Source: a virus
Strand: one strand, 5' to 3'
Length of the DNA stretch: 20,705 bases
Virus genome (UHGV): UHGV-1358007
Below are positions 2,734 through 18,797 of this stretch, in pieces; the first letter of the stretch is position 1; each line of letters starts with the position of its first letter. A program made the translations under genes and the position numbers. A model generated the notes under the pieces. It searched no databases. It was not told where the DNA came from and saw only the letters and a program-made list of their open reading frames with translations.

Positions 2734-5700
2734 ATGGAACCCATATCAATTACAGTGGCAACTTATGTAGCAACTAAACTTATTGATCAATTCATCTCTC
2801 AAGAAGGATATGGTTGTATTAAGAAAGCATTATTCCCCCAAAAAAGATATGTGGATAGATTATATCAACTAATTGAAGAGACGGCAATTGAGTTTGAAGA
2901 AACATATCCAGTAGAAAGTGGAGCAATACCATTTTATCATTCCGAACCATTGTTTGAGATGTTGAATGAGCACATCTTTTTTAAAGAGTTCCCTGACAAA
3001 GAGATATTATTAGACAAGTTCAAAGAATATCCAAGTATCACTCCCCCAACTCAACAACAACTCAGCCTTTTTTATGAGATGTTATCATTAAAAATCAATA
3101 ATTGTTCGAAGTTAAAAAAGCTACATATCGAAGAAACGTATAAAGAAAAAATATTCGATATTAATGAAGAGCTCATTCAAGTCAAACTTATTTTACGGTC
3201 TATAGATGAGAAACTAACTTTTCACTTAAGTGATGATTGGTTAAATGAAAAAAATAGTCAAGCAATAGCTGACTTGGGAGGTCGATACACACCCGAACTC
3301 AACGTAAAGCTAGAAATAGCAGAGATATTTGATGGCCTCGGTAGAACTAATGATTTTTCTAAAATATTTTATTCGCATATAGATAGCTTTCTGGTCGCTG
3401 GAAAGAAATTACATAGTTGCGATGTAATTTCCTCAGAATTATTTGAAATAAACCAGTCCTTAAAAGAAATTTCTGATATATATCAGGAGATTAATTTTTC
3501 TAAATTAGATGAAATCCCTATAAATAAATTTAATAACTATGTTTCTAGCTGCCAGACAGCTATTGGCGGAGCGGTATCAATATTGTGGGAACTCCGAGAA
3601 AAGTCAGAGCAAGTAGGTGAAACCAAGCATTACAGTGATAAGTATTCATCTACTCTGCGAATGCTTCGGGAATTTGACTATGCGTGCAATGAATTACGTA
3701 TATTCATTAATTCAACAACAGTGAAGTTGGCTAACAACCCATTCTTACTTCTCGAAGGAAAAGCAGGAATTGGTAAGTCTCATTTACTGGCTGATGTGAT
3801 TAAAAATCGAATTGCTTCTGGGTATCCTTCACTACTCATACTAGGGCAACAACTTACTTCAGATGAATCTCCATGGTCACAAATCTTCAAGAGATTACAG
3901 CTTAAAATCACTTCTCGTGAATTCCTAGAAAAACTGAATTTATATGGCAAAAAAACAGGAAAAAGAGTCTTAGTTTTTATTGATGCTATTAATGAAGGTA
4001 ATGGAAATAAATTCTGGAATGACAATATTAACAGTTTTGTCGATGAAATCAGATGCTTTGAATGGCTTGGTCTGATAATGTCAGTCAGAACAACATATAG
4101 AAATGTAACAATTTCACATGAGAATGTTGTGCGAAATAATTTTGAAATTCATGAACATATTGGATTCCAGAACGTTGAGTTGGAAGCGGTTAGTCTATTT
4201 TATGATTATTACAATATTGAGAGGCCTTCATCTCCTAACCTTAATCCAGAGTTTAAAAATCCTCTATTTCTTAAGTTATTGTGTGAAGGCATTAAGAAAA
4301 ATGGTTTAACCAAAGTGCCTGTTGGATTTAATGGGATTTCAAATATTTTTAACTTTTTAGTTGAAGGGGTAAATAAATCATTAGCATCGCCAAAAAAATA
4401 TGCATTCGATCCCAGTTTTCCTCTTGTTAAAGATGCTCTCAATGAAATCATAAAATTCAAATTAGAGATTGGTCGTAATAGTATTTCACTTAAAGATGCT
4501 CACTCAGTGGTTCAATCTGTAGTTAATGATTATGTTGCTGATAAAACCTTCCTCAGCGCCTTGATTGACGAAGGATTATTGACTAAAGGCATAGTGAGAA
4601 ATGATGATAATTCTACTGAGGAAGTAGTTTATGTGGCTTTTGAAAGGTTTGATGATCATTTAACTGTTAATTTTTTATTAAATGATGTTGAAAATATCGA
4701 AAGTGAATTTAAGCCTGATGGTCGTCTGAAAAAATATTTTCATGATGAATGTGATTTTTATATAAAATCGGGAATAGTAGAGGCGTTGTCTATTCAATTG
4801 CCAGAAAGGTATGAAAAAGAGCTTTATGAATTTCTGCCGGAGTTCAGCAATAATCTTAAATTACTAGAAGCCTTTATTGATAGCTTGATATGGCGCGATA
4901 TTAAGGCTATTGATTTCGAAAAAATTAGACCTTTCATCAATGAACATGTTTTTAAATTTAAAGATAGTTTTGATCATTTCCTCGAGGCAGTGATCTCTAT
5001 TTCAGGTTTAGTTGGCCATCCCTTTAATGCTAATTTCTTGCATGATTGGCTAAAAGATTATTCTTTGGCAAATCGAGATTCGTTTTGGACTACAGAACTT
5101 AAATATAAATATAGTGAAGACTCAGCATTTAGGCATCTAATCGATTGGGCATGGGCCAGAACAGATAAAAGCTTTGTTTCGGATGAGTCAATCGAGCTAG
5201 TTGCAACTAGTTTATGCTGGTTTTTAACTTCTAGTAACCGAGAACTTCGAGATTGCTCAACTAAGGCTTTAGTGAGTTTACTCGAGCCAAGAATTCCTGT
5301 ATTGAGAAAAATAATTGATAAGTTTTATGGTGTAAATGATCCTTACGTTTGGGAAAGAATATTTGCAGTTGCATTAGGCTGTACATTGCGAACTGATAAT
5401 ATTAAAGAACTAAAATATTTAGCCGAAACTGTTTACCAAAAGGTATTTTGTTCTAAGTATGTGTATCCAAATATATTACTTAGAGATTATGCTAGAGAGA
5501 TTATTGAATTTGCTAATCATCTTGGATTGGAACTTGAAAGCATTGAATTATCCAAGACTAGACCACCCTACAACAGCATTTGGCCTGACAAGATTCCTTC
5601 AAAAGAGGAACTAGAGTCCCTTTATGATAAAGAACCTTATCGGGAACTCTGGAGCTCTATTATGGAAGATGGTGACTTTTCACGATATACTATTGGAACA

Positions 5701-7188
5701 AATTATAATCATTCTGATTGGTCTGGTTGCAAGTTTAATGAAACCCCTGTTGACCGTAAGCAAGTTTTTAAAACTTTCAAATGTAAACTAACTGATCAAC
5801 AAAAAGACTTGTATGATGCCACAGATCCTTTCATTTATGATGATAAATGCGAAGGAATTAAATTTGGTCGTGTGGTCGGTAGAAAAGCACAGGAAGAAAT
5901 AAAGGCGAGCAAGAAATTATTTAAGAATTCATTGTCATACGATCTGTTAAGTGAGTTTGAAAATGAAATAGAGCCATACCTGGATCATAATAATAATCTG
6001 CTGGAAACTGATAAACACTTTGATCTTCGACTAGCTCAACAATTTATATTCAATCGTGTTATAGAGCTTGGTTGGGATCCGGAGAAGCATGGTAATTTTG
6101 ACCAACAAATAGGAACTGGACGTGGACGTAGAGAGGCATTCCAAGAACGGATTGGTAAAAAATACCAATGGATTGCTTATTATGAATACATGGCAAGGCT
6201 AGCCGATAATTTTACTCGTTTTGAAGGTTATGGTGACGAACGAAAGGAAAATCCATACCAAGGGCCATGGGAGCCTTACGTAAGAGATATAGATCCCACT
6301 ATCTTACTTAAAGAAACTGGAACGAAAAAAATAAGCAATAAAGAAATGTGGTGGCTTAATGATGAAGTGTTTGATTGGACTTGCTCTAATGAAGACTGGG
6401 TTAAAAGTTCTACTACTATAACTAATTCATATGCTTTTATTGAAGTTAAAGATGATAATGGTGATGAATGGATAGTATTAGAAAGTCATCCATCATGGAA
6501 AGAACCAAAAATTATTGGAAACGATGATTGGGGGCACCCACGAAAAGAGGTTTGGTATCAGATCAGAAGTTATATCGTTAAAGTTGAAGAATTTGAAAAT
6601 TTTAGATGTTGGGCAATAGCTCAAGACTTTATGGGCAGGTGGATGCCGGAATGTACTGATAGATACCAATTATTTAATAGGGAGTACTATTGGTCCGAAG
6701 CATTTAAGTCTTTTAAATCAGATTATTATGGTGGATCTGACTGGACTTCGGTAACAGACCGGGAGTCTGGAGCTAAGATAGCTGATGTTAGTGTCACTTC
6801 GATTAATTATTTGTGGGAAGAGGAGTTCGACAAATCAAAAATAGAAACTTTGAATTTTTTGAAGCCTAGTAACTTAATCTTTGAAAAGATGGGATTAAAA
6901 AGTGGGGAAGTAGAGGGTAGCTTCAATGATGAAAATGGAACTATGGTTTGCTTTGCAGCTGAAGCTGTATATGCTTCAAAGCCGCATCTACTTGTTAAAA
7001 AAGAACCATTTTTAACAATGTTAAGGGACAATGGTTTTGAAATCGTTTGGACATTATTAGGTGAAAAGGGCGTTATAGGGGGCTCACTCATATCAAGTCA
7101 TCATTATGGTCGACAGGAGTTTAGTGGAGCATTTTATTATGAAGACAGTCAGCTAACAGGAAGTCATAAAACTAGCTTTACGAGATAA
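2734..7188 (+). CDS. Large NACHT/STAND-like P-loop NTPase (1484 aa); candidate single-gene anti-phage defense protein with unassigned N- and C-terminal domains
   Basis: Uninterrupted 4455-nt ORF with RBS ggaagaag upstream of ATG; Walker A GKAGIGKS (nt 3757-3780); Walker B-like VLVFIDAINE; MSVRTT and HIGFQNVELEAVSLFYDYY resembling NACHT sensor and GF motifs; AT-rich versus flanks. Confidence 0.8.
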   Translation: MEPISITVATYVATKLIDQFISQEGYGCIKKALFPQKRYVDRLYQLIEETAIEFEETYPVESGAIPFYHSEPLFEMLNEHIFFKEFPDKEILLDKFKEYPSITPPTQQQLSLFYEMLSLKINNCSKLKKLHIEETYKEKIFDINEELIQVKLILRSIDEKLTFHLSDDWLNEKNSQAIADLGGRYTPELNVKLEIAEIFDGLGRTNDFSKIFYSHIDSFLVAGKKLHSCDVISSELFEINQSLKEISDIYQEINFSKLDEIPINKFNNYVSSCQTAIGGAVSILWELREKSEQVGETKHYSDKYSSTLRMLREFDYACNELRIFINSTTVKLANNPFLLLEGKAGIGKSHLLADVIKNRIASGYPSLLILGQQLTSDESPWSQIFKRLQLKITSREFLEKLNLYGKKTGKRVLVFIDAINEGNGNKFWNDNINSFVDEIRCFEWLGLIMSVRTTYRNVTISHENVVRNNFEIHEHIGFQNVELEAVSLFYDYYNIERPSSPNLNPEFKNPLFLKLLCEGIKKNGLTKVPVGFNGISNIFNFLVEGVNKSLASPKKYAFDPSFPLVKDALNEIIKFKLEIGRNSISLKDAHSVVQSVVNDYVADKTFLSALIDEGLLTKGIVRNDDNSTEEVVYVAFERFDDHLTVNFLLNDVENIESEFKPDGRLKKYFHDECDFYIKSGIVEALSIQLPERYEKELYEFLPEFSNNLKLLEAFIDSLIWRDIKAIDFEKIRPFINEHVFKFKDSFDHFLEAVISISGLVGHPFNANFLHDWLKDYSLANRDSFWTTELKYKYSEDSAFRHLIDWAWARTDKSFVSDESIELVATSLCWFLTSSNRELRDCSTKALVSLLEPRIPVLRKIIDKFYGVNDPYVWERIFAVALGCTLRTDNIKELKYLAETVYQKVFCSKYVYPNILLRDYAREIIEFANHLGLELESIELSKTRPPYNSIWPDKIPSKEELESLYDKEPYRELWSSIMEDGDFSRYTIGTNYNHSDWSGCKFNETPVDRKQVFKTFKCKLTDQQKDLYDATDPFIYDDKCEGIKFGRVVGRKAQEEIKASKKLFKNSLSYDLLSEFENEIEPYLDHNNNLLETDKHFDLRLAQQFIFNRVIELGWDPEKHGNFDQQIGTGRGRREAFQERIGKKYQWIAYYEYMARLADNFTRFEGYGDERKENPYQGPWEPYVRDIDPTILLKETGTKKISNKEMWWLNDEVFDWTCSNEDWVKSSTTITNSYAFIEVKDDNGDEWIVLESHPSWKEPKIIGNDDWGHPRKEVWYQIRSYIVKVEEFENFRCWAIAQDFMGRWMPECTDRYQLFNREYYWSEAFKSFKSDYYGGSDWTSVTDRESGAKIADVSVTSINYLWEEEFDKSKIETLNFLKPSNLIFEKMGLKSGEVEGSFNDENGTMVCFAAEAVYASKPHLLVKKEPFLTMLRDNGFEIVWTLLGEKGVIGGSLISSHHYGRQEFSGAFYYEDSQLTGSHKTSFTR

Positions 7189-7571: not shown

Positions 7572-7617
7572 ATTCGTAATGCGAAGGTCGTAGGTTCGAC
7601 TCCTATTATCGGCACCA
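7572..7617 (+). other. Phage attachment core (attP): 46 bp matching the 3' end of tRNA-Thr (thrW, anticodon CGU) through CCA; not a complete tRNA
   Basis: attcgtaatgcgaaggtcgtaggttcgactcctattatcggcacca matches the thrW 3' segment as I remember it; upstream sequence does not continue the tRNA; integrase gene adjacent. Confidence 0.65.
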
Positions 7618-7631
7618 TTTAAATCAATAAG

Positions 7632-8795
7632 TTACACATCATTAGTACCTTCCTTATTTTTTGACTGGGACAAATTTGGGACCGATGGGTTCAGGATCGA
7701 GTCTATTTGCCGTGCGTGTTCGGTAAGGTGATTAGGTGCAAGGTGAGCATATCGACGAACCATTTCGATAGACTCCCAGCCTCCCATTTCCTGTAACACT
7801 GACAACGGGACTCCGGCTTGAACCAGCCAACTTGCCCAGGTGTGTCTCAAGTCGTGAAATCTGAAATCATCAATACCAGCCCGTCTCAGCGCCGCTTTCC
7901 AGGCTGTGTTTGCGTCATACCGCATCTTCCTTACTGTTGGCGCTTTCGTTCCGTCTGGTTTGGTACAGCTTTCCTTGTACACAAATACCCAACGGTGATG
8001 ATTCCCGATTTGTTTTTTCAATACGCGACATGCAGTATCATTCAGCGCAACGCCAATTGCGCGGTTTGATTTACTCTCTTCCGGGTTTATCCATGCCACC
8101 CGGCGCTGCATATCTATTTGTTGCCATTCAAGGTTGATGATGTTCGAGCGTCTTAAGCCTGTTGCCAGTGCAAATTCAACAACAGACTTTAATGGCTCCG
8201 GACATTCATCAATCAGCCTTTGTGCTTCATGGGGCTCCAGCCAGCGGATCCGTTTATTCTTTGGTTGAGGCACTTTAATAATTGGTGCCTTATCCAGCAT
8301 TTTCCATTCACGCTCTGCGGCTCTTAGTAGGGCCTTTATAAATGAAAGATGCGTAGCCTTCGTTGCAACGGACGCTGGTTTTGGCGTGTATTCTGGAACA
8401 GGTTTCCCTTTTTTTCTGCATGCTTCTGCCCTGAGTTTCCAGTTTTCCTCATGACGCCGGTTCGTCATTTTCTGCATTGCTGAATAAATTTTTGATTCAG
8501 TAATGTCTCTTAGTTGCATTCCTGCGAAATGTTGAAGCCAGAATCCGATCCGGCTTTTGTCATCGTCCAGTGATTTTTTATGTGCTTTCTCTTCAAGCCA
8601 CCTGACACACGCTTCCTCGAACGTTATATCAGGTATTTCACCAAGTTTGCTGACCCGCCATGCTTCAGCCTTTAGCTTGTCATGGAGTTCTGTCGCCTGC
8701 CTTTTGTCCTTTGTTCCAAGAGACTGTTTAAATCTTTTACCGTTCGGCAATGTGAAACTGGCGTACCATATTTCACCTCTGCGGAAGAGTGACAT
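7632..8795 (-). CDS. int: Tyrosine integrase (P22 Int-like, 387 aa)
   Basis: [33 protein letters not shown]... with C-terminal [15 protein letters not shown]...VRRYAHL catalytic region; RBS aggaaag upstream; next to att core. Confidence 0.95.
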
Positions 8796-11620: not shown

Positions 11621-12022
11621 TTAGAGTTCGTATTGAACTCCTTTGACTACACCAATGATAAGGCAATTACCATTGATAGGGATGTTGGGATACCGAGGAT
11701 TTAATGGCACTAAAAACTTTTGAGGGCCATCGATGACTAATTTTTTTACTGTAGCTTCGTTTGTTCCATCAAGTCGAGCGATGACTATTTTTCCATGACG
11801 AGGTTCTGCATCTGGATCTACAATCACTGTTGCGCCTTCTGGTATTGTTGGGAGGCCATTAGGGTTAGTCATGGAGTCACCTTTAACCTCTAATGCAAAT
11901 GAGTTATCACCAATCTTTAATGATGTATCTACCCACTTGTCCACTTCACTAAACACTTCTGCTGCCCTGCACTCAGTAAACTGCCCAGCCTGAACCCACG
12001 ATATTACAGGAACTCTGCGCAT
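11621..12022 (-). CDS. cI-type repressor C-terminal S24 peptidase domain only (133 aa); N-terminal HTH domain absent
   Basis: VQAGQF (Ala-Gly cleavage site), GDSM (catalytic Ser) and VKKL (Lys) conserved; aligns to lambda cI residues about 100-236; only 28 in-frame codons upstream before a stop, none a start codon; no SD. Confidence 0.75.
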   Translation of the reverse strand: MRRVPVISWVQAGQFTECRAAEVFSEVDKWVDTSLKIGDNSFALEVKGDSMTNPNGLPTIPEGATVIVDPDAEPRHGKIVIARLDGTNEATVKKLVIDGPQKFLVPLNPRYPNIPINGNCLIIGVVKGVQYEL

Positions 12023-12072: not shown

Positions 12073-12101
12073 TTGACGTATTGAAGAACTTCGCTAATAA
12101 T
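12073..12101 (+). promoter_or_regulatory. Candidate pR promoter (-35 ttgacg, 17-bp spacer, -10 aataat) for cro
   Basis: Motifs read directly about 25 nt upstream of cro RBS ggaggg. Confidence 0.4.
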
Positions 12102-12122
12102 AAAACTTAGTTTGGAGGGCGT

Positions 12123-12323
12123 ATGACAACTGACGATATCGAAAGCTACTTCGGCAGTATTGAGAAAGTTGCTGCTTTTTTCGGCATAACAACTGAAGCC
12201 GTTTATCAGTGGCGAAACCGTCCGGGCCAGTTAATTCCAAAAGGACGTGCAGCAGAAGCTGCATATAGAACTTGCGGACGGTTGCCATTTAAACCTGAGC
12301 TTTATGAAAAATCTAATGGATAA
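12123..12323 (+). CDS. cro: Cro-like HTH regulator (66 aa)
   Basis: Small HTH protein (IEKVAAFFGITTEAVYQWRNRPGQLIP) divergent from the repressor gene; RBS ggaggg. Confidence 0.75.
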   Translation: MTTDDIESYFGSIEKVAAFFGITTEAVYQWRNRPGQLIPKGRAAEAAYRTCGRLPFKPELYEKSNG

Positions 12324-12912
12324 ATCGATTAACAGAAACCACAGAACGATGAGGCTAACCGTGGGTAAGCATCACTGGAAAGTAGAAAAACAGCCTGAGT
12401 GGTACGTGAAAGCTGTCAGAAAAACTATCGCAGCGTTGCCGGGTGGTTACGCTGAAGCAGCTGACTGGCTGGATGTAACAGAAAACGCATTATTTAACCG
12501 CCTTCGTGCCGATGGCGATCAGATTTTCCCGCTGGGATGGGCAATGATTTTGCAACGTGCTGGTGGAACTCACTTCATTGCTGACGCTGTGGCGCAGTCT
12601 GCAAATGGCGTCTTTGTGTCTCTTCCTGACGTCGAGGATGTGGACAACGCCGATATTAACCAGCGCCTGCTGGAAGTCATTGAACAGATTGGCAGTTATT
12701 CCAGACAGATTCGTTCGGCAATCGAAGACGGTGTGGTGGAACCGCATGAGAAGACAGCAATTAACGACGAGCTGTATCTCTCAATTTCGAAGCTGCAGGA
12801 GCATGCAGCACTGGTCTACAAAATCTTTTGCATTTCAGAAAGTAATGACGCCCGCGAGTGTGCAGCTCCGGGCGCCGTGGCGTGTCGTGACTGTGGAGAA
12901 ACTAACGCATGA
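12304..12912 (+). CDS. Hypothetical regulatory protein in the cII position (about 202 aa); start uncertain (12247, 12304 or 12316)
   Basis: ORF directly after cro on the early-right strand; no strong SD at any candidate start. Confidence 0.55.
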
Positions 12913-13247
12913 ACAGTTTAACAACACACTACCGTCGCTCGCAACTGATTGCGCTTCCTGTACCGGGTGGAAAAGCGAAGGTGGAGTATTGCTATGCAGT
13001 TAATGTACCAGGTGACAGGGAAATTGTAACCCACAGCTTTGCTGAGTGGGCTGTGGGTGATTTCAACCGGCAGAAGGAGACAGTCCTTTGCGACAAGTTA
13101 ACCGCTGGTTCAAAGATCACTACGGAGTGCCCGTCAGAGTCATTCGTTGGGAGCCGGAAACACAACGGGTTATCTACCTCCGTGAAGGCTATGAGCATGA
13201 GTGCTTCAGCCCGCTCGAACAGTTTCGTCGTAAATTCAGGAAAATAG
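12909..13247 (+). CDS. Hypothetical protein (112 aa)
   Basis: ATGA overlap with upstream gene, same strand as the operon; no recognisable motifs. Confidence 0.4.
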
Positions 13248-13256
13248 AGGTCGGTC

Positions 13257-14198
13257 ATGAGCACTAAATTAACCGGCTATGTATGGGATGGTTGTGCTGC
13301 GTCAGGCATGAAATTATCCAGCGTGGCAATTATGGCCCGCCTGGCTGATTTCAGTAATGACGAAGGTGTGTGCTGGCCATCAATTGAAACTATTGCCCGT
13401 CAGATTGGTGCGGGGATGAGTACCGTCAGAACGGCTATCGCACGGCTGGAAGCAGAAGGCTGGTTAACGCGTAAGGCGCGTCGCCAGGGTAACCGCAATG
13501 CGTCGAATGTTTATCAGCTTAACGTTGCGAAGCTTCAGGCAGCGGCATTTTCTCAACTGTCAGATTCTGACCCGTCAAAATCTGACGCATCAAAATCTGA
13601 CACGTCAAAATTTGATGCGTCGAAATCTGGCAAAAAAGCGGGTTTTCACCCGTCAGAATCTGGCGGGGATCCGTCAGTAAAATCAAAACATGATCCGTCA
13701 GATAAAAAACCTTCTCGTCCGGACGCTTCGCAACCGGACACGCAGACGGCTGAACAGGATTTTTTAACTCGCCATCCTGATGCGGTTGTATTCAGCCCTA
13801 AAAAGCGCCAGTGGGGAACGCAGGATGATTTGACCTGCGCACAGTGGCTCTGGAAAAAAATCATTGCCCTGTACGAGCAGGCCGCCGAATGTGACGGCGA
13901 GGTGGTTCGTCCCAAAGAACCGAACTGGACAGCCTGGGCAAACGAAATTCGCCTGATGTGTGTGCAGGATGGTCGTACTCACAAACAAATCTGCGAGATG
14001 TACAGCCGCGTCAGCCGCGATCCGTTCTGGTGCCGTAACGTGCTCAGCCCGTCGAAGTTGCGGGAAAAATGGGATGAGCTTTCCCTGCGCTTATCGCCGT
14101 CCGTCAGCACGCACACAGAAAAACGTGAAGACCCGTACTTCAAAGCCAGTTACGACAACGTGGACTACAGCCAGATCCCGGCAGGATTCAGGGGGTGA
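13257..14198 (+). CDS. Replication initiation protein (O-like; N-terminal winged-helix, internal iteron-encoding linker)
   Basis: RBS agagg; N-terminal ...SIETIARQIGAGMSTVRTAIARLEAEGWL... HTH; Ser/Asp/Lys-rich linker encoded by direct DNA repeats; replication-gene position. Confidence 0.75.
   Translation: MSTKLTGYVWDGCAASGMKLSSVAIMARLADFSNDEGVCWPSIETIARQIGAGMSTVRTAIARLEAEGWLTRKARRQGNRNASNVYQLNVAKLQAAAFSQLSDSDPSKSDASKSDTSKFDASKSGKKAGFHPSESGGDPSVKSKHDPSDKKPSRPDASQPDTQTAEQDFLTRHPDAVVFSPKKRQWGTQDDLTCAQWLWKKIIALYEQAAECDGEVVRPKEPNWTAWANEIRLMCVQDGRTHKQICEMYSRVSRDPFWCRNVLSPSKLREKWDELSLRLSPSVSTHTEKREDPYFKASYDNVDYSQIPAGFRG
13561..13700. repeat. Iteron-like direct repeats (candidate replication origin) inside the initiator gene
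   Basis: Repeated 15-16 bp units cgtcaaaatctgac(g/a), ccgtcagaatctgg, tccgtcagtaaaatc, tccgtcagataaaaaac; units partly palindromic (cgtca...tgacg). Confidence 0.5.
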
Positions 14199-14689
14199 TC
14201 ATGAGTCTTTTGAATGACGTTCAGAAATTCATTGAAGCCCATCCGGGCTGTACTTCCGGAGACATTGCGGATGCTTTTGCAGGTTACTCACGGCAGCGCG
14301 TTCTGCAGTCTGTAAGCAAGTTACGTCAGAGTGGGCGTGTGGCTCACCGTTGTGAAGGAGATACACGCAGACATTTCCCGCGCCTGACTGAGAGAGCGCA
14401 GGAGCCGGAACCACAACCAGTTCGTGAAACCAGACCTGTGCGCAATTTCTATGTCGGCACTAACGAGCCCCGGGTGATTTTGTGCCTGACCCGCCAGGCT
14501 GAAGAACTGGAGTCAAGGGGCTTATACCGTCGTGCTGCAACCGTGTGGATGGCGGCATTCCGTGAAAGCCACTCCCAGCCAGAACGAAACAATTTTCTGG
14601 CGCGTCGTGAGCAGTGCTTACAGAAAAGCAGCAAGCGCGCTGCATCGGGTGAAGAGTGGTATCTGTCAGGGAATTACGTGGGGGCGTAA
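14195..14689 (+). CDS. Hypothetical regulator with PerC-like C-terminal motif (164 aa)
   Basis: GTG start overlapping upstream stop; motif AEELESRGLYRRAATVWMAAF resembles the PerC/Pch activator family (from memory). Confidence 0.55.
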   Translation: MIMSLLNDVQKFIEAHPGCTSGDIADAFAGYSRQRVLQSVSKLRQSGRVAHRCEGDTRRHFPRLTERAQEPEPQPVRETRPVRNFYVGTNEPRVILCLTRQAEELESRGLYRRAATVWMAAFRESHSQPERNNFLARREQCLQKSSKRAASGEEWYLSGNYVGA

Positions 14690-15015
14690 TGACGACGTTA
14701 ACTCAATGCCAGCAGCAGGTGCTGGATATGCTGATTTCTTATCAGAAAGAGCGTGGCTTTCCGCCAACCAATCAGGAGGTGGCAACCATGCTGGGATACC
14801 GTTCAGTGAATGCAGCTGTGGAGCACCTCCGCGCACTGGAGAAAAAAGGCGTCATCACGATAAAGCGTGGCGTGGCCCGGGGTATCACTCTTCATACCGC
14901 GGTGAAGGACGACGACAGCGAGGCGGTCGGGATTATCCGCTCACTGCTTGCCGGTGAGGAAAACGCCAGGCTGCGTGCAGCCCACTGGTTACATGAGAGG
15001 GGCCTGAAAGTATGA
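14689..15015 (+). CDS. LexA N-terminal DNA-binding-domain-like protein without S24 peptidase domain (108 aa)
   Basis: LTQCQQQVLDMLISYQKERGFPPTNQEVATMLGYRSVNAAVEHLRALEKKGVITIKRGVARGITL aligns position-by-position with E. coli LexA residues about 4-70; TAATG coupled start. Confidence 0.75.
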   Translation: MTTLTQCQQQVLDMLISYQKERGFPPTNQEVATMLGYRSVNAAVEHLRALEKKGVITIKRGVARGITLHTAVKDDDSEAVGIIRSLLAGEENARLRAAHWLHERGLKV

Positions 15016-15401
15016 AATTGATCCTGCCTTTTCCGCCCAGCGTGAACACGTACTGGCGACACCCCAATAAAGGGGCGCTTGCAGGTAAGAGCCTGATAAG
15101 CGCGGCGGGGCGAAAATTCCAGAGCGCAGCGTGTGCAGCCATCATTGAGCAGTTACGTCGTTTGCCGAAACCAACGTCGGCACCAGCTTCAGTGGAGATC
15201 GTGTTGTTTCCTCCGGATAACCGGATCCGCGATCTGGACAACTATAACAAGGCGCTGTTTGACGCCCTGACCCACGCGGGTGTGTGGGAAGACGACAGCC
15301 AGGTGAAAAGAATGCTGGTGGAGTGGGGACCGGTTATCCAGAAAGGGAAGGTCGAGATCACTATCAGTAAGTATGAGAAACCGGCGGGTGCAGCCGCCTG
15401 A
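15012..15401 (+). CDS. rusA: RusA-family Holliday junction resolvase (129 aa)
   Basis: LPFPPSVNTYWRH ... RIRDLDNYNKALFDALTHAGVWEDDSQV, matching RusA hallmark motifs; ATGA overlap with upstream gene. Confidence 0.9.
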   Translation: MKLILPFPPSVNTYWRHPNKGALAGKSLISAAGRKFQSAACAAIIEQLRRLPKPTSAPASVEIVLFPPDNRIRDLDNYNKALFDALTHAGVWEDDSQVKRMLVEWGPVIQKGKVEITISKYEKPAGAAA

Positions 15402-15420
15402 TTAAGAGGAGAAACGAAGT

Positions 15421-16220
15421 ATGAATAATCTGATGGTCATTGATGGTATTGAAGTTCGTCGTGATGCTTATGGGCGTTACAGCCTGAACGATCTGCACAG
15501 GGCAGCCGGGGGAGAACAACGAAATACTGGCTCTCCAATAAGCAAACCTGTGAATTGATTGAACAACTTTTCACCGAGGGTGGAATTCCGCCTCTGGAAC
15601 AAAATCAACCAGTTAGCGTCATTAATGGCGGAAATAACCAGGGGACGTATGTCTGCAAAGAACTGGTGTATGCCTATGCAATGTGGATCAGCCCGTCATT
15701 CCATCTGAAGGTGATCCGTACTTTCGATATGGTAACCAGCGTACCGGAAAAATTATCCGGGCAGGCTGCTGACAAGATGCAGGCTGGCGTGATTCTGCTG
15801 GACTTTATGCGCCGGGAGTTAAACCTGTCTAACTCATCTGTGCTTGGGGCCTGTCAGAAACTCCAGGAGGCTGTTGGCTTACCGAATCTGGCACCACGCT
15901 ATGCCATTGATGCTCCTGCTGACGCGCCTGATGGCTCAAGTCGCCCTACGCTGTCGCTGAGTGCACTGCTGAAACAGTATGGTATCCGCCTGACAGCTAA
16001 TCAGGTATATCACCAGATGGCGAAGCTGGGGATCGTCGAGCAGCGCGAACGATACAGCCGTACCGCGATTAACAACATCAAAAAATTCTGGTCGCTGACA
16101 GCGAAAGGCTGCATGTTCGGCAAGAACATCACCAGTCCCGCAAATCCGCGCGAGACGCAGCCGCATTTCTTCGAATCCCGATTCCCTGAGCTGTTAAAGC
16201 TGCTCGATACCGTACATTGA
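15421..16220 (+). pseudogene. KilA-N/KilAC antirepressor-like gene interrupted by a frameshift near 15540-15555 (or sequencing error)
   Basis: Short ORF from ATG about 15421 with strong RBS aggag encodes MNNLMVIDGIEVRRDAYGRYSLNDLHRAAGG (KilA-N N-terminus) and stops after about 43-45 codons; the rest of the domain (GTYVCKELVYAYAMWISPSFHLKVI) continues in ORF 15555..16220, which has a TTG start and no RBS. Confidence 0.5.
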
Positions 16221-16221
16221 G

Positions 16222-17217
16222 GTGACCGTGAGAGCACTATTGACCCCTGAAATTGCCCCGCGTATGGGGATCGTATTGTTCAGACCAGGTTCAGAGCTGA
16301 TGCCCCTGTTTATGCAGGGGCGTATCCTGCTGGAGCCTGAGCCGGAACGTTATTCATCTTTCGCCAGTGGTGCCGTTCCGGCGGCATCACAACCGCTGGC
16401 GGATGATCCTGCCGTTCGGGCCGTGTTCCGCAATGAGGCAGTGATCCGTCGTGCTGGTGGCGTGGAATGTCTTGAAAGCTGGTTACTTCGTGAAAAAGGC
16501 TGCCAGTGGCCTCATTCCGACTGGCACAGCGAGAACATGACCACAATGCGACACGCTCCGGGTGCAATCCGTCTGTGCTGGCACTGCGATAACCAGCTGC
16601 GCGATCAGTTCACGGAACGGCTGGAATCAATGGCAACGGATAACTGTGCCCGCTGGGTGTTGTCTGTTGTGCGTCGGGATCTCGGTTTTGATGACAGTCA
16701 CGTTGTGACAATGCCGGAACTGTGCTGGTGGCTGATTCGTAATGATCTGGCGGATGCCTTACCGGAAAGTGCAGCCCGTAAGGCACTGAGATTACCGAAG
16801 CCTGTTGTGCCGTCTGTTACCCGGGAAAGTGACCTTGTGCCTTCGGTTCCTGCCACCAGCATCATCCAGGATAAGGCGAAAAAGGTGCTGGCGCTGAAAG
16901 TGGATCCGGAGTCGCCGGAGTCTTTTATGTTACGCCCAAAACGTCGCCGCTGGGTTAATGAAAAGTACACGCGCTGGGTTAAGACACAGCCGTGTGCATG
17001 TTGTGGAAAGCCCGCTGATGATCCCCACCACCTGATAGGTCACGGTCAGGGTGGAATGGGAACAAAAGCGCATGACCTTTTTGTGTTGCCTTTGTGCAGA
17101 AAGCATCACGACGAGCTGCATGCAGATACCGTGGCATTTGAAGAGAAGTATGGCTCCCAACTGGAGCTGATATTTCGTTTTATCGATCGTGTGCTGGCAA
17201 TTGGCGTACTGGCCTGA
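16222..17217 (+). CDS. Nin-region protein with C-terminal HNH-like Cys/His motif (DUF968/YdfU-like), 331 aa
   Basis: C-terminal CACCGKPADDPHHLIGHGQGG...CRKHHDELH; GTG start 1 nt after upstream stop. Confidence 0.7.
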   Translation: MTVRALLTPEIAPRMGIVLFRPGSELMPLFMQGRILLEPEPERYSSFASGAVPAASQPLADDPAVRAVFRNEAVIRRAGGVECLESWLLREKGCQWPHSDWHSENMTTMRHAPGAIRLCWHCDNQLRDQFTERLESMATDNCARWVLSVVRRDLGFDDSHVVTMPELCWWLIRNDLADALPESAARKALRLPKPVVPSVTRESDLVPSVPATSIIQDKAKKVLALKVDPESPESFMLRPKRRRWVNEKYTRWVKTQPCACCGKPADDPHHLIGHGQGGMGTKAHDLFVLPLCRKHHDELHADTVAFEEKYGSQLELIFRFIDRVLAIGVLA

Positions 17218-17234
17218 TTTTGTGGAGAAAGTTG

Positions 17235-17597
17235 ATGCGTGATATTCAAATGGTTCTGGATCGTTGGGGAGCATGGGCGGCGAGTGATAGTTCAGGAGTT
17301 GACTATTCTCCTATAGCTGCTGGGTTTAAAGGGCTTCTTCCCTATACAAGCAAAACACGTCAGGCTTGTTCAGATAGTGATGCATTAATTCTTGAAGGTT
17401 GTCTTGCTCGTCTAAAGCAAAAAAGGCCGGACGAACATTCGCTTCTTGTTGCCCATTACCTATTCGGTATCTCTAAAAGAAAGCTCGCCAAGGCTCGTAA
17501 AAAGGATGAGAAATTAATACGCATTGAGATACAGATGGCTGAGGGATTTATCGATGGTTGCCTTAGTATGCTCGATATACGTTTAGAATGTGAATAG
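17235..17597 (+). CDS. Q: Late antiterminator Q (short phage-82/DLP12 QuuD-type, about 120 aa)
   Basis: MRDIQMVLDRWGAWAA... resembles QuuD as I remember it; RBS ggagaaag before ATG at 17235; lies upstream of the lysis cassette. Confidence 0.8.
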   Translation: MRDIQMVLDRWGAWAASDSSGVDYSPIAAGFKGLLPYTSKTRQACSDSDALILEGCLARLKQKRPDEHSLLVAHYLFGISKRKLAKARKKDEKLIRIEIQMAEGFIDGCLSMLDIRLECE

Positions 17598-17631: not shown

Positions 17632-17801
17632 AGAAACTGTTTTTTATGACTGAACCTGTGGTGCAACTTAAAAAGTTACTGTAGCCATTGACGCCATTGT
17701 TGCTTGTTTTTTGAGCAGTGGATGGAATGCTTGCTGGCTTAGGCGCAGCTGTAGTTGTATGCCTGTTAGTATAGACTACAAAGTTACCTGTAGATGATTT
17801 G

Positions 17802-18797
17802 TTATCCATGTCGAGCCCACCCCTCTGAGATAAGGTTATGATTTATGCCGAACTGACCTGGGACGCCTGGAACTTGCAAACGCTGTAACATCCCCTCAGT
17901 GCGGAATTGATATGAAAACGTGTCTGGAGCCTCTAAAATGCTTCTGACAGATACGTACGATGCCTGGTTAACTGTTCCTAAGATAGCATTTGGGTCAAAA
18001 GGTTCACCCAGATGCATCTCAGTTTTGAAATCTTCATAAATTTCTTTGATCAGACCGTAAAGGTGCTCATCTGGTTTTTCCACCGTAAGACCTAAATCGT
18101 TTACCGCTTCAATCCTATTTATAGTGTAGTCATGGCTACCAGAATCACTACAAAGGAAACTTACAATTTTCTCAATGCTTTCACTATCAGTGAGTTGGTG
18201 AGACAGTAGTTTTCTTGCGAGCATTTGAATCTGCGCTTTAGCTCGATAGACTTTTCCAAGTACCAAGGGATGAACCTTTTCACTTAATGCAAGGAGGATC
18301 TGTGCAAGTGAGGCATCATCTTTGATACTCAAATCATGCTTAACTACTTCAAGATAGCCATTGATTTCTTCAACACTGACTGGAAGTTGAAGTGGCTGCC
18401 CATTGATTATGACCGAAGGGTTAAGTGGTGTATTCACACTTGGATCGATTGGCCCTAAGGTTGCCTGCTTGGTCATAACCAAGTTGTTCGCGCCAAGGCA
18501 CATTATCGTCCCAGAACTATGGCATTTTGATGGGATTATGATTTCGAGTTCTTTACAAAACTGACGAAGCAGGTTTACAAGGCTCCATGCTGTTAAAGTG
18601 TCGCCGCCTCGCGTATAGAGCACGAGGCTAATTTTTTGAACATCACCTATCACATCAAGATGATTGACGAACAGATCGAATACATCAGCGCTGATTTGAG
18701 CTTCTTGGTTTGGTCTATCACCTGTTACATAGCATAATACTTTTGAATTGCGTGCTTGTTCCAGTTGCGCATACAGGGCTTTACGCTGCTCAAACAT
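17802..18797 (-). CDS. Clp-fold serine protease of the SDH/S49 (SppA-like) family, 331 aa; moron encoded antisense to late transcription
   Basis: Motifs LVLYTRGGDTLTAWSL, KCHSSGTIMCLGAN and ATLGPIDPS resemble ClpP/SppA/SDH peptidase signatures; lower GC than phage genes; opposite strand between Q and holin. Confidence 0.75.
   Translation of the reverse strand: MFEQRKALYAQLEQARNSKVLCYVTGDRPNQEAQISADVFDLFVNHLDVIGDVQKISLVLYTRGGDTLTAWSLVNLLRQFCKELEIIIPSKCHSSGTIMCLGANNLVMTKQATLGPIDPSVNTPLNPSVIINGQPLQLPVSVEEINGYLEVVKHDLSIKDDASLAQILLALSEKVHPLVLGKVYRAKAQIQMLARKLLSHQLTDSESIEKIVSFLCSDSGSHDYTINRIEAVNDLGLTVEKPDEHLYGLIKEIYEDFKTEMHLGEPFDPNAILGTVNQASYVSVRSILEAPDTFSYQFRTEGMLQRLQVPGVPGQFGINHNLISEGWARHG

Follow-up and report, generated by a model that had tools for sequence, protein, structure and literature searches.

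The window analyzed here, a stretch of 20,705 nucleotides from the virus genome UHGV-1358007, encodes a small protein that joins a LexA-type DNA-binding domain to a conserved helical tail and carries no S24 domain. The reading preferred here is that this LexA-like protein acts as a LexA-type repressor that cannot be cleaved and is produced at an early stage of lytic growth, a tentative proposal given a probability of about 0.4. As a sequence feature the gene is ordinary and not new. An identical sequence is already annotated in RefSeq as a "LexA family transcriptional regulator" (WP_000210164.1), some family members carry the automatic name "Rrf2 family", and literature searches recovered no functional study of the LexA-like family.

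A LexA-type winged helix without a protease domain

The LexA-like gene lies on the plus strand at 14689..15015, with an ATG start, 108 codons and a TGA stop, and its product belongs to PHROG 362. The profile of that group, described as "transcriptional repressor", aligns residues 1-108 with positions 1-106 of 106 (E=1.4e-59). Residues 1-69 (14689..14895, plus strand) constitute a LexA-type winged helix-turn-helix, as indicated by Pfam, an ungapped alignment to PDB entries, AlphaFold2 models and Foldseek. The Pfam family LexA_DNA_bind (PF01726) matches residues 1-65 over its entire length (profile positions 1-65 of 65; E=2.9e-19, 69 bits against a cutoff of 23.7). A phmmer search of the PDB aligned residues 2-69 with residues 2-69 of Escherichia coli LexA without a gap (1lea, E=7e-16), with 34 identities in 68 positions. 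The original prediction that the protein follows the LexA N-terminal domain residue by residue is thereby borne out. Two AlphaFold2 models, with pLDDT values of 75.7 and 82.5, depict a three-helix winged helix-turn-helix, with helices at residues 6-22, 28-35 and 40-52 and wing strands at 56-58 and 66-68. In Foldseek, the first of these models fits the LexA-DNA complex 3jso with an rmsd of 1.2 Å across 67 aligned columns, of which 51% are identical.

The resemblance to LexA does not extend to the protease domain. The LexA equivalog model TIGR00498 scores 70.8 bits, under its cutoff of 110.95, and only positions 1-91 of its 203 are matched. No Pfam match to Peptidase_S24 (PF00717) is present in the LexA-like protein, whose chain ends at residue 108, whereas the same family does match the phage's own CI remnant. 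Because the S24 domain is missing, RecA*-stimulated self-cleavage cannot inactivate the protein, and the predicted absence of this domain and the non-cleavable character both stand.

The winged helix is followed by a flexible linker (residues 70-74, 14896..14910, plus strand), with pLDDT below 50 in the AlphaFold2 models, and by a two-helix tail (residues 75-108, 14911..15012, plus strand) delineated by conservation, the models and hhalign. The tail had been described as short and unrelated. It is instead a conserved module with the family pattern EA..ϕϕRxLLA....AR.RA..ϕL...G, retained among members down to about 37-49% identity. The models place its helices at approximately residues 74/75-87/88 and 93-103, within a block of pLDDT about 86-89. 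The conserved hydrophobic residues are spaced i/i+3/i+4/i+7, and a helical hairpin tethered by the floppy linker is predicted, making the tail a candidate module for dimerization or partner binding. The first tail helix aligns weakly in hhalign with the LexA linker and the Ala84-Gly85 region. Beyond the winged helix, Foldseek returned matches to MarR/MepR and BlaI/MecI proteins at rmsd 7-13 Å, which are uninformative on the tail.

DNA-contact residues and SOS boxes

The helix-3 residues of LexA that contact DNA are Ser39, Asn41, Ala42, Glu44 and Glu45 (PMC3091678). In the LexA-like protein, the recognition helix (residues 39-47, 14803..14829, plus strand) reads SVNAAVEHL, compared with SPNAAEEHL in E. 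coli LexA, and is of the gammaproteobacterial LexA type, SxNAAxEHL. Four of the five contacts are kept (Ser39, Asn41, Ala42 and Glu45), as are the wing residues Arg64-Gly65-Ile66, while Glu44 is replaced by Val; Pro40 to Val and Arg28 to Asn are further changes relative to E. coli LexA. Across the family, Ser39 is invariant and Asn41 nearly so, with Tyr in one member. Glu45 gives way to Leu, Ile, Gly, Asp or Thr in some members, and Glu44 is absent from every member examined, with V, A, F, T, L, Y or Q in its place. In the comparison set, 12 of 21 full-length LexA-like representatives possess Glu44. In one subfamily the helix, SPNAAAEHL, differs from SPNAAEEHL at a single residue. The one apparent full-length LexA with the same recognition helix (P0121) proved to be a gene-calling fusion to an upstream dam fragment and was set aside. 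The expectation that the LexA contact residues would be conserved thus holds for most of them in the window protein but fails at Glu44 throughout the family and at Glu45 and Asn41 in some members. Binding to SOS boxes is consequently not assured, and the substitutions, judged from sequence, point to an altered DNA specificity.

The search for SOS boxes covered the window and the whole of the EC19 prophage, a relative with 99.6% identity. Neither contains an exact match to CTGT-N8-ACAG. With one mismatch allowed, 14 sites were counted against an expectation of 7.4±2.7, a number reached in 4 of 100 shuffles. A 20-bp matrix representing E. coli SOS-box sites gave a best score of 11.5 across the window and the whole EC19 prophage, which is below the weakest reference site (12.6) and no better than shuffled sequence; as a positive control, the matrix recovered the experimentally proven SOS box of Gifsy-2. 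One single-mismatch site just downstream of the Q gene, at 17637-17652, scored below 8 and was dropped. The suggested search for SOS boxes in the phage thus found none, and any SOS-box target of the protein must lie on the host chromosome.

Operon context and distribution

The LexA-like gene is part of a lambdoid prophage's early-right (nin-region) operon, and translational coupling links it to both neighbors. Upstream, a PerC-family gene with a MarR-like N-terminus (14195..14689, plus strand) overlaps it by one nucleotide at the stop/ATG junction TAATG. Downstream, the ATG of the gene for the Holliday-junction resolvase RusA (15012..15401, plus strand) overlaps its stop as ATGA, a junction that is conserved, as is the neighborhood of the two genes throughout the family. 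A DUF968/HNH-like gene (16222-17217, plus strand) and the Q antiterminator gene (17220-17597, plus strand) form the downstream end of the conserved nin-region block. The order LexA-like gene, optional small ORF, RusA and/or DUF968 gene and Q persists among relatives at 37-49% identity, and rusA adjoins the LexA-like gene in all 24 of the spread full-length matches listed from E. coli genomes, as it does in 20 listed phage records. In window-type phages, no intergenic region precedes the LexA-like gene. A consensus scan found no promoter-like site on the plus strand from 12101 to 15402; the closest upstream match on that strand in the region scanned, TTGACG-17-AATAAT at 12073..12101, spans a deletion junction at 12098 and is probably the source of rightward transcription in this genome. 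The overlapping starts and stops, together with the lack of a directly upstream promoter-like site, suggest that the protein would be produced only under rightward early transcription, after induction or infection.

The gene is widespread: of 5426 complete E. coli genomes, 2233 (about 41%) carry it, and it is also found in SfV, SfIV, mEp460 and Stx2a/Stx2c phages. It evolves under purifying selection, with dN/dS of 0.11 relative to SfV and 0.07 relative to mEp460. When genome contigs were scanned with the alignment of a sister lineage, nearly all hits were lexA genes of hosts, the majority of them in Halomonas, and one true family member was recovered, in Buttiauxella (L014).

SOS-controlled operons in a sister lineage

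The sister lineage provides the link between the family and the SOS response. A strong canonical SOS box (17-30 bits) covers the promoter in all 28 of its viral-contig loci, which represent at least five sequence groups, and L006, L009, L010 and L012 share this SOS-box promoter arrangement. Phages of Enterobacter, Cedecea and Klebsiella (L006 and L009 among the loci) belong to this lineage. The operon runs from dinI or a RecA_C-like ORF through a small GUG-initiated ORF to the LexA-like gene, and many of the loci have no RusA gene. Residence in SOS-box-controlled operons with dinI ties the family to SOS biology. Host LexA alone explains these boxes, and binding of the phage protein there is not required.

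The layout resembles the dinI-antirepressor operon of the Gifsy phages, for which regulation by LexA was proven experimentally (Lemire et al., 2011, PMC3121763). Both contain, in order, a terminator/SOS box, dinI, a GUG-initiated small ORF, a gene X, an ORF of 66-67 aa, a NinG, RusA or DUF968 gene, and Q. Identity to the Gifsy-2 counterparts amounts to 63% for DinI and 45% for the 66/67-aa ORF. The two differ at gene X, which in Gifsy-2 of LT2 (STM1020) encodes a DUF1367 protein termed "irsA homologue" and not a LexA-like protein; an identification of the family with that "irsA homologue" was rejected on this ground. Similarly, BLASTP detected no similarity between the small ORF of the sister lineage (phrog_1813) and the antirepressor GftA, which it matches in position and GUG start alone, and this candidate equivalence was rejected as well. 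The window phage itself has no SOS box, dinI or phrog_1813 ORF, and thus departs from the Gifsy-type dinI operon layout. Deletion of the gene in the equivalent slot, the irsA homologue, left induction of Gifsy-1 and Gifsy-3 unchanged (Lemire et al., PMC3121763).

Relationship to known regulators

A phage precedent is gp6 of GIL01, a tectivirus of Bacillus thuringiensis, which is 44% identical to the host LexA domain, binds GaCACAnnTGTGaC and activates transcription (Fornelos et al., 2018, PMC6182141). Like gp6, the window protein is a phage-encoded LexA DNA-binding domain without S24; expression from an early operon after SOS induction is shared as well, presumably so for the window phage, and in both cases phage biology is tied to host LexA. 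gp6 has 66 aa, no helical tail and the recognition helix SHKTAHRYL of a Gram-positive LexA lineage, whereas members of the window family are carried by lambdoid phages that infect Enterobacterales and end in a conserved tail of 35 aa. BLASTP gave no alignment between gp6 and the window protein at E<=100, and the two are probably independent captures of the 5' half of a host lexA gene.

In comparison with E. coli LexA itself (TIGR00498; 1lea, 1jhh, 3jso), the protein shares 50% identity over the gap-free residues 2-69, the fold to within 1.2 Å and the type of helix and wing, but has neither the Ser119/Lys156 dyad nor the LexA-type dimer interface and ends in a different C-terminal module. The comparison also takes in the N-terminal cleavage fragment of LexA and its non-cleavable alleles; insensitivity to RecA* makes the protein reminiscent of an Ind- repressor such as that of lexA3(Ind-). 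The BlaI/MecI-, MarR- and Rrf2-type repressors, in which an N-terminal winged helix-turn-helix is followed by C-terminal helices that form the dimer, offer an analogy of architecture only and have no sequence relationship to the LexA-like protein.

Proposed function and alternative explanations

If the protein is an uncleavable LexA-type repressor, the tail would provide the dimerization that the S24 domain confers in LexA. The dimer would then sit on LexA-type (CTGT-like) palindromic operators of the host chromosome, either once host LexA has been destroyed or irrespective of RecA*, and would restore repression during lytic growth, to the SOS regulon as a whole or to a part of it. Feedback of the protein on the SOS-box promoter of its own operon would be expected in the sister lineage as well. 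This reading is favored by the identity of the domain, with four of five contacts and the wing kept and a recognition helix of gammaproteobacterial type, and by the conserved tail with its predicted hairpin and floppy linker. It is favored further by the coupled start/stop overlaps and the stretch free of promoter-like sites that precedes the gene, by the SOS-box operons of the sister lineage and their Gifsy-like layout, and by purifying selection on a gene that 41% of the complete E. coli genomes carry. Against it stand the family-wide loss of Glu44 and the Glu45 and Asn41 variants, which point to altered specificity as far as sequence can indicate, as well as the absence of SOS boxes from the phage and the neutral effect on induction of deleting the Gifsy-1/-3 slot gene. 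The precedent of gp6, which uses another palindrome and activates, also argues by analogy against it. A more elaborate version, advanced with somewhat greater reserve, holds that the family comprises widespread RecA*-proof LexA mimics that dimerize through the helical tail and re-close SOS operators after induction. The Gifsy-like relatives would co-transcribe these mimics with DinI and an ORF in the antirepressor position from an SOS-box promoter, forming an "SOS off-switch" with negative feedback.

The main alternative is a LexA-derived but retargeted phage transcription factor. Such a factor would act on a palindromic operator of its own, in phage or host, and would repress or activate as gp6 does at the late promoter P3 of GIL01. 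This explanation is possible but rather doubtful. In addition to the loss of Glu44, positions 41, 42 and 45 vary between subfamilies, and the LexA-like protein has diverged faster between the window and L003 (45% identity) than RusA (76%) or the DUF968 protein (64%), as expected of a regulator evolving in specificity. However, no candidate operator was found, the window-type gene is not preceded by an intergenic region, late-gene activation in lambdoid phages is already performed by Q, and the subfamily with SPNAAAEHL stands a single residue away from LexA.

The recurrent association with rusA, the gene order preserved at 37-49% identity and the conserved ATGA overlap would suit a DNA-binding accessory of RusA and the DUF968/HNH protein, for example one that targets or modulates the resolution of branched phage DNA. 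This is nevertheless improbable: RusA is missing from many sister-lineage loci, lambdoid nin modules typically keep their gene order whether or not the products interact, and a recognition helix of LexA type implies that the protein binds specific sequences in duplex DNA rather than junctions. RusA and DUF968 genes are likewise encountered in prophages that lack the LexA-like gene. A protein decoy, in which the tail hampers RecA* or the S24 active sites of LexA or CI without involving DNA, is very unlikely. It draws on hmmer and hhalign, in both of which the match to LexA continues to about residue 90 and Ala88-Gly89 falls on Ala84-Gly85 of LexA (LLAGEE versus VAAGEP), but the alignment is of low confidence in that part, the models predict a helix here, in contrast to the cleavage loop of LexA, and the Ala-Gly pair is not conserved beyond an enterobacterial subgroup (VERES, IDDQP, MADTP, LACNV and others elsewhere). 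Least credible of all is the unusual induction switch originally proposed because the LexA-like gene shares the window with a repressor fragment consisting of S24 only and with a KilA-N antirepressor-like gene. All three ORFs are indeed there, but the S24-only ORF (11621-12022, minus strand) corresponds to residues 76-208 of a normal 208-aa HTH+S24 CI. The window lacks positions 7832-8052 of L001, and this 221-bp deletion takes away roughly the first 50 codons of cI together with the cI-cro intergenic region, stopping 25 nt short of cro. The KilA-N gene is likewise split by a 10-bp deletion at window position 15520. Both genes are intact in prophages of 99.4-99.9% identity, intact copies being present in EC19 and in the phages vB_EcoM-689R6 and vB_EcoS-569R4, and thousands of genomes carry the LexA-like gene without these lesions; the apparent circuit is an artefact of deletions specific to this genome.

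Implications

Should the uncleavable repressor bind SOS boxes, many lysogens of E. coli, Shigella, Salmonella and Klebsiella would carry a damage-proof repressor that appears as LexA disappears. Models of the SOS response, of prophage cross-induction and of Shiga-toxin phage induction would be altered, and a small uncleavable LexA-type repressor would be available as a natural tool. An SOS off-switch of the kind described above, if real, could shape induction kinetics, the cross-talk of prophages that share a host, the release of colicins and toxins, and mutagenesis. [quoted passage not shown]

The LexA-like protein and its tail

The LexA-like gene (14689-15015, + strand) is an ATG-initiated open reading frame of 108 codons. 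In its product, all 65 positions of the Pfam profile LexA_DNA_bind (PF01726) align with residues 1-65 at E=2.9e-19, scoring 69 bits against a cutoff of 23.7. Peptidase_S24, the LexA autocleavage domain, has no Pfam match. A PDB search aligned residues 2-69, ungapped, with the same-numbered stretch of E. coli LexA (1lea, E=7e-16), identical at 34 of 68 positions; full-length LexA chains gave E values of about 2e-15. Two AlphaFold2 runs, based on a shallow (pLDDT 75.7) and a more diverse alignment (pLDDT 82.5), returned the same topology: helices at residues 6-22, 28-35, and 40-52, a two-stranded wing (56-58 and 66-68), a linker of pLDDT <50 at about residues 70-75, and two tail helices (74/75-87/88 and 93-103; mean pLDDT of these blocks about 86-89). 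The LexA-operator crystal structure 3jso superposes on the first model at 1.2 Å over 67 columns (51% identity). These comparisons bear out, far beyond chance, the original observation of a LexA N-terminal domain lacking S24. The NCBI LexA equivalog model scores 70.8 bits, below its cutoff of 110.95, and matches over positions 1-91 of 203 only; judged by sequence, the protein is a relative of LexA, not a LexA. Its identity as an uncleavable LexA-lineage winged helix-turn-helix protein with a private C-terminal helical module, produced as a delayed-early product, is close to certain.

The tail, originally described as unrelated, proved instead to be a conserved module, kept at 37-49% identity. 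In close relatives (66-98% identity), Ile82, Arg84, Leu86, Leu87, Ala88, Glu90, Glu91, Ala93, Arg96, Ala97, Trp100, Leu101, Glu103, and Arg104 show little or no variation. An exhaustive profile search retrieved 11,151 proteins at E<=1e-3, mostly true LexAs, together with short proteins of 37-49% identity in which the profile match continues through the tail. All short members share the pattern EA..ϕϕRxLLA....AR.RA..ϕL...G, and the conserved hydrophobic residues are spaced to occupy a single face of each helix. As a candidate role, the tail hairpin would substitute for the missing S24 domain in dimerization or bind a partner. Alignments to LexA (hmmer, TIGR model, hhalign) reach about residue 90, where confidence is low, and place LLAGEE opposite LexA VAAGEP (Ala84-Gly85). 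The segment is possibly a vestige of that region; the Ala-Gly pair is missing from other subfamilies. Separately, several library proteins of 140-350 aa (P0126, P0129, P0130, P0136, P0137, and others) contain two tandem LexA_DNA_bind-like stretches, perhaps forming "pseudo-dimers" of the LexA N-terminal domain within one chain.

DNA recognition and SOS boxes

Helix 3 of LexA contacts DNA through Ser39, Asn41, Ala42, Glu44, and Glu45 (PMC3091678). The corresponding helix reads SVNAAVEHL in the window protein versus SPNAAEEHL in LexA, so that four of the five contacts (Ser39, Asn41, Ala42, and Glu45) are conserved and Glu44 is Val. Arg28 is replaced by Asn, and the wing retains Arg64-Gly65-Ile66. 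All family members have Ser39 and nearly all have Asn41. Glu never occurs at position 44, which is V, A, F, T, L, Y, or Q; most members have Glu45, the others Gly, Asp, Leu, Ile, or Thr. Among 21 parsed full-length LexA-like representatives, 12 have Glu44, and the dominant motif is SxNAAE(E/D)HL. The recognition helix is therefore clearly a gammaproteobacterial LexA-type helix, with one contact systematically altered. Because the helix type is kept while one contact is changed, SOS-box binding by the window protein is plausible but unproven.

No SOS box was found in the phage itself: the window has no exact CTGT-N8-ACAG match, and one-mismatch sites are not enriched (14 versus 7.4±2.7 expected; >=14 in 4 of 100 shuffles). 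A symmetrized 20-bp matrix, built from 20 known LexA sites of E. coli that themselves score 12.6-27.1, reached at best 11.5 in the window and in the whole near-identical prophage of E. coli EC19, which equals the shuffled expectation and leaves both free of SOS boxes. The matrix is sound, since it recovered the experimentally defined Gifsy-2 box beside dinI (PMC3121763) at 24.4 bits. An SOS-type target for this protein would therefore have to lie on the host chromosome.

SOS boxes do occur elsewhere in related phages that carry the LexA-like gene. A strong canonical box of sequence (T/C)ACTGTAAAAATAAACAGTG (20.5-22.5 bits) lies at or just before the methylase/orf48 start, between Q and holin, in SfV (23907-23926), mEp460 (24597-24616), and the sister-lineage locus L012 (7739-7758). 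mEp460 also has a 25.8-bit box within its cI-type repressor gene (15546-15565) and two boxes ahead of a dinI-like gene (6831-6850 and 6859-6878).

Early-right operon and window architecture

The LexA-like gene lies in an early-right operon comprising cro (12123-12323), a CII-like gene (12247-12912), an O-like replication gene (13257-14198), a PerC-family gene (14195-14689), the LexA-like gene, RusA (15012-15401), DUF968 (16222-17217), and Q (17220-17597), with a split KilA-N gene between RusA and DUF968. Its ATG overlaps the upstream stop codon (TAATG) and its stop codon the rusA start (ATGA); distant relatives show the same 4-nt overlaps. Consensus scans found no promoter-like site on the + strand of 12101-15402 and no + strand terminator-like site ahead of the gene. 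Because of these coupled junctions and the lack of such sites, we infer delayed-early expression and silence in a repressed lysogen.

The translationally coupled upstream protein (164 aa) has a PerC-family C-terminus (residues 100-151) joined to an N-terminus (12-59) that weakly resembles a MarR-type winged helix; other relatives have a Dam or PAPS-reductase-like gene in this slot. Between Q and the lysis genes, the window carries a gene for a 331-aa protein named "SDH family Clp fold serine proteinase" (17802-18797, - strand), where SfV, mEp460, and L012 have the DNA methylase preceded by an SOS box. In Stx phages, this moron slot holds stx.

An S24-only repressor fragment and a KilA-N gene had been taken to indicate an unusual induction circuit, an idea we abandon: both are lesions of genes that are intact in relatives. 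Relative to EC19 (L001 7832-8052), the window has a 221-bp deletion with its junction at 12098, flanked by a 5-bp CTAAT microhomology, which removed about the first 50 cI codons and the cI-cro intergenic region up to 25 nt before the cro start. The prophages compared are 99.4-99.9% identical to the window, and the deletion is absent from all matched phage records. The 133-aa S24-only frame (11621-12022, - strand) corresponds to residues 76-208 of a standard 208-aa HTH+S24 CI. Given the lambdoid layout, the lost segment probably held PRM, OR, and PR, and the junction created a hybrid promoter-like site, TTGACG-17-AATAAT (12073-12101), just upstream of cro. With the cI start and the cI-cro region lost, this phage may be a virulent-type derivative that has neither repressor nor operator. 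The KilA-N gene is frameshifted by a 10-bp deletion at 15520 (AAAAACCGCC missing versus EC19) into 15421-15558 and 15555-16220; it is intact (269 aa) in EC19, SfV (orf44), and mEp460. Both cI and the KilA-N gene are intact in EC19, vB_EcoM-689R6, and vB_EcoS-569R4.

The gene order of the window is that of an excised or circular (attP) form. An Avs2 (AVAST type 2) defence gene (2734-7188, 1484 aa) and tail-fibre genes lead up to a 64-bp att overlap (7572-7635), which in EC19 belongs to the 3' part of tRNA-Thr, and the integrase (7632-8795, - strand) comes next; in the EC19 prophage, the Avs2/tail-fibre end and the integrase end lie at opposite prophage ends. The first ~930 bases of the window, in the tail-fibre region, have no match to EC19.

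An SOS-linked sister lineage

A sister lineage from Enterobacter, Cedecea, Klebsiella, and Salmonella has an N-terminal extension of roughly 30 aa, and its LexA-like gene lies outside the replication operon, behind a strong canonical SOS box on or abutting an upstream promoter-like -35/-10 pair. For example, L009 has TTGAAC-17-TATACT with box TACTGTTTATTTATACAGTA (27.1 bits), L006 and L012 have boxes of 20.5 and 26.5 bits, and L010 has tandem boxes (26.3 and 17.7 bits). Downstream of the box lie, in order, dinI or a RecA_C-like 95-aa ORF, phrog_1813 (a small ORF with a GUG start), the LexA-like gene, phrog_1212 (an ORF of 66-67 aa), RusA and/or DUF968, and Q. A sister-lineage query, P0135, retrieved 34 viral-contig loci. 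The 28 with the small ORF (47-97% identity to P0135; about five sequence groups) all have an SOS box (17-30 bits) within 2.4 kb upstream, 25 of them within 1.2 kb; the six organized like the window have none. Among the circumstantial evidence that the family has an SOS-related role, this layout is the strongest, although host LexA alone is enough to explain the boxes.

The same layout is found in the LexA-regulated operon that triggers Gifsy induction (Lemire et al., PMC3121763), and the Gifsy-2 DinI and 66-aa ORF are 63% and 45% identical to their sister-lineage counterparts. However, in Gifsy-2 of LT2, the slot of the LexA-like gene is occupied by a DUF1367 protein, which rules out equating the family with IrsA. 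That protein, STM1020 (L128 11768-12370, after the GftA antirepressor gene; full-length DUF1367, E=4e-98), seems to be what Lemire et al. called the "irsA homologue". In L010 (4242-4597; also L110, L118, and L119), tandem overlapping SOS boxes precede the 95-aa ORF, whose match is confined to the C-terminal domain of RecA (PF21096, E=9e-10). Because it occupies the dinI position of related phages, it may be another RecA-directed modulator.

Candidate mechanisms

The most likely mechanism, to which we assign a probability of about 0.4, is that the protein would dimerize via its tail, that the dimer would bind LexA-type operators of the host chromosome and, in the sister lineage, also its own promoter, and that SOS-gene repression would be restored regardless of RecA*. 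Somewhat less probable is a regulator retargeted to a private operator, a reading favoured by the invariant loss of Glu44 and by the faster divergence of the LexA-like protein (45% identity) versus RusA (76%) and DUF968 (64%). Its precedent is GIL01 gp6, which shares 44% identity with the LexA domain of its own host, recognizes GaCACAnnTGTGaC, and switches on the late promoter P3 (PMC6182141). As a phage-encoded truncated LexA homologue, gp6 is also the closest functional precedent; however, it is a tail-less protein of 66 aa whose helix is of the Gram-positive type, BLASTP finds no similarity between it and the window protein, and the two probably arose independently. The conserved adjacency to RusA and DUF968 would fit an accessory of these recombination genes, which we consider improbable, and more improbable still is that the protein serves as a decoy by means of its Ala-Gly-like segment.

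Prevalence and significance

The window protein has the same sequence as WP_000210164.1 ("LexA family transcriptional regulator") of E. coli EC19, whose prophage, between tRNA-Thr/proA and pao genes, matches the window minus its first 934 bases at 99.6% identity. Over its full length, the protein also matches PHROG 362 ("transcriptional repressor"; E=1.4e-59). At >=95% nucleotide identity, 50 phage records carry the gene, including SfV (orf42, "unknown"), SfIV, mEp460 ("LexA DNA binding domain protein"), 1720a-02, and Stx2a/Stx2c-converting phages. Among 5426 complete E. coli genomes, 2233 carry it, with up to four copies each and with rusA beneath or beside the match in all full-length E. coli matches listed. 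Its dN/dS is 0.11 versus SfV and 0.07 versus mEp460; this purifying selection and the deeply conserved architecture rule out a dead remnant.

The family is thus already catalogued by its RefSeq name, PHROG 362, and the mEp460 annotation, and a literature search found no experimental work on it. These uncharacterized phage-encoded truncated LexA homologues are ordinary as a sequence feature. Their prevalence, carriage by Stx phages, and linkage to SOS boxes and dinI in the sister lineage make an experiment worthwhile, and it would be cheap.
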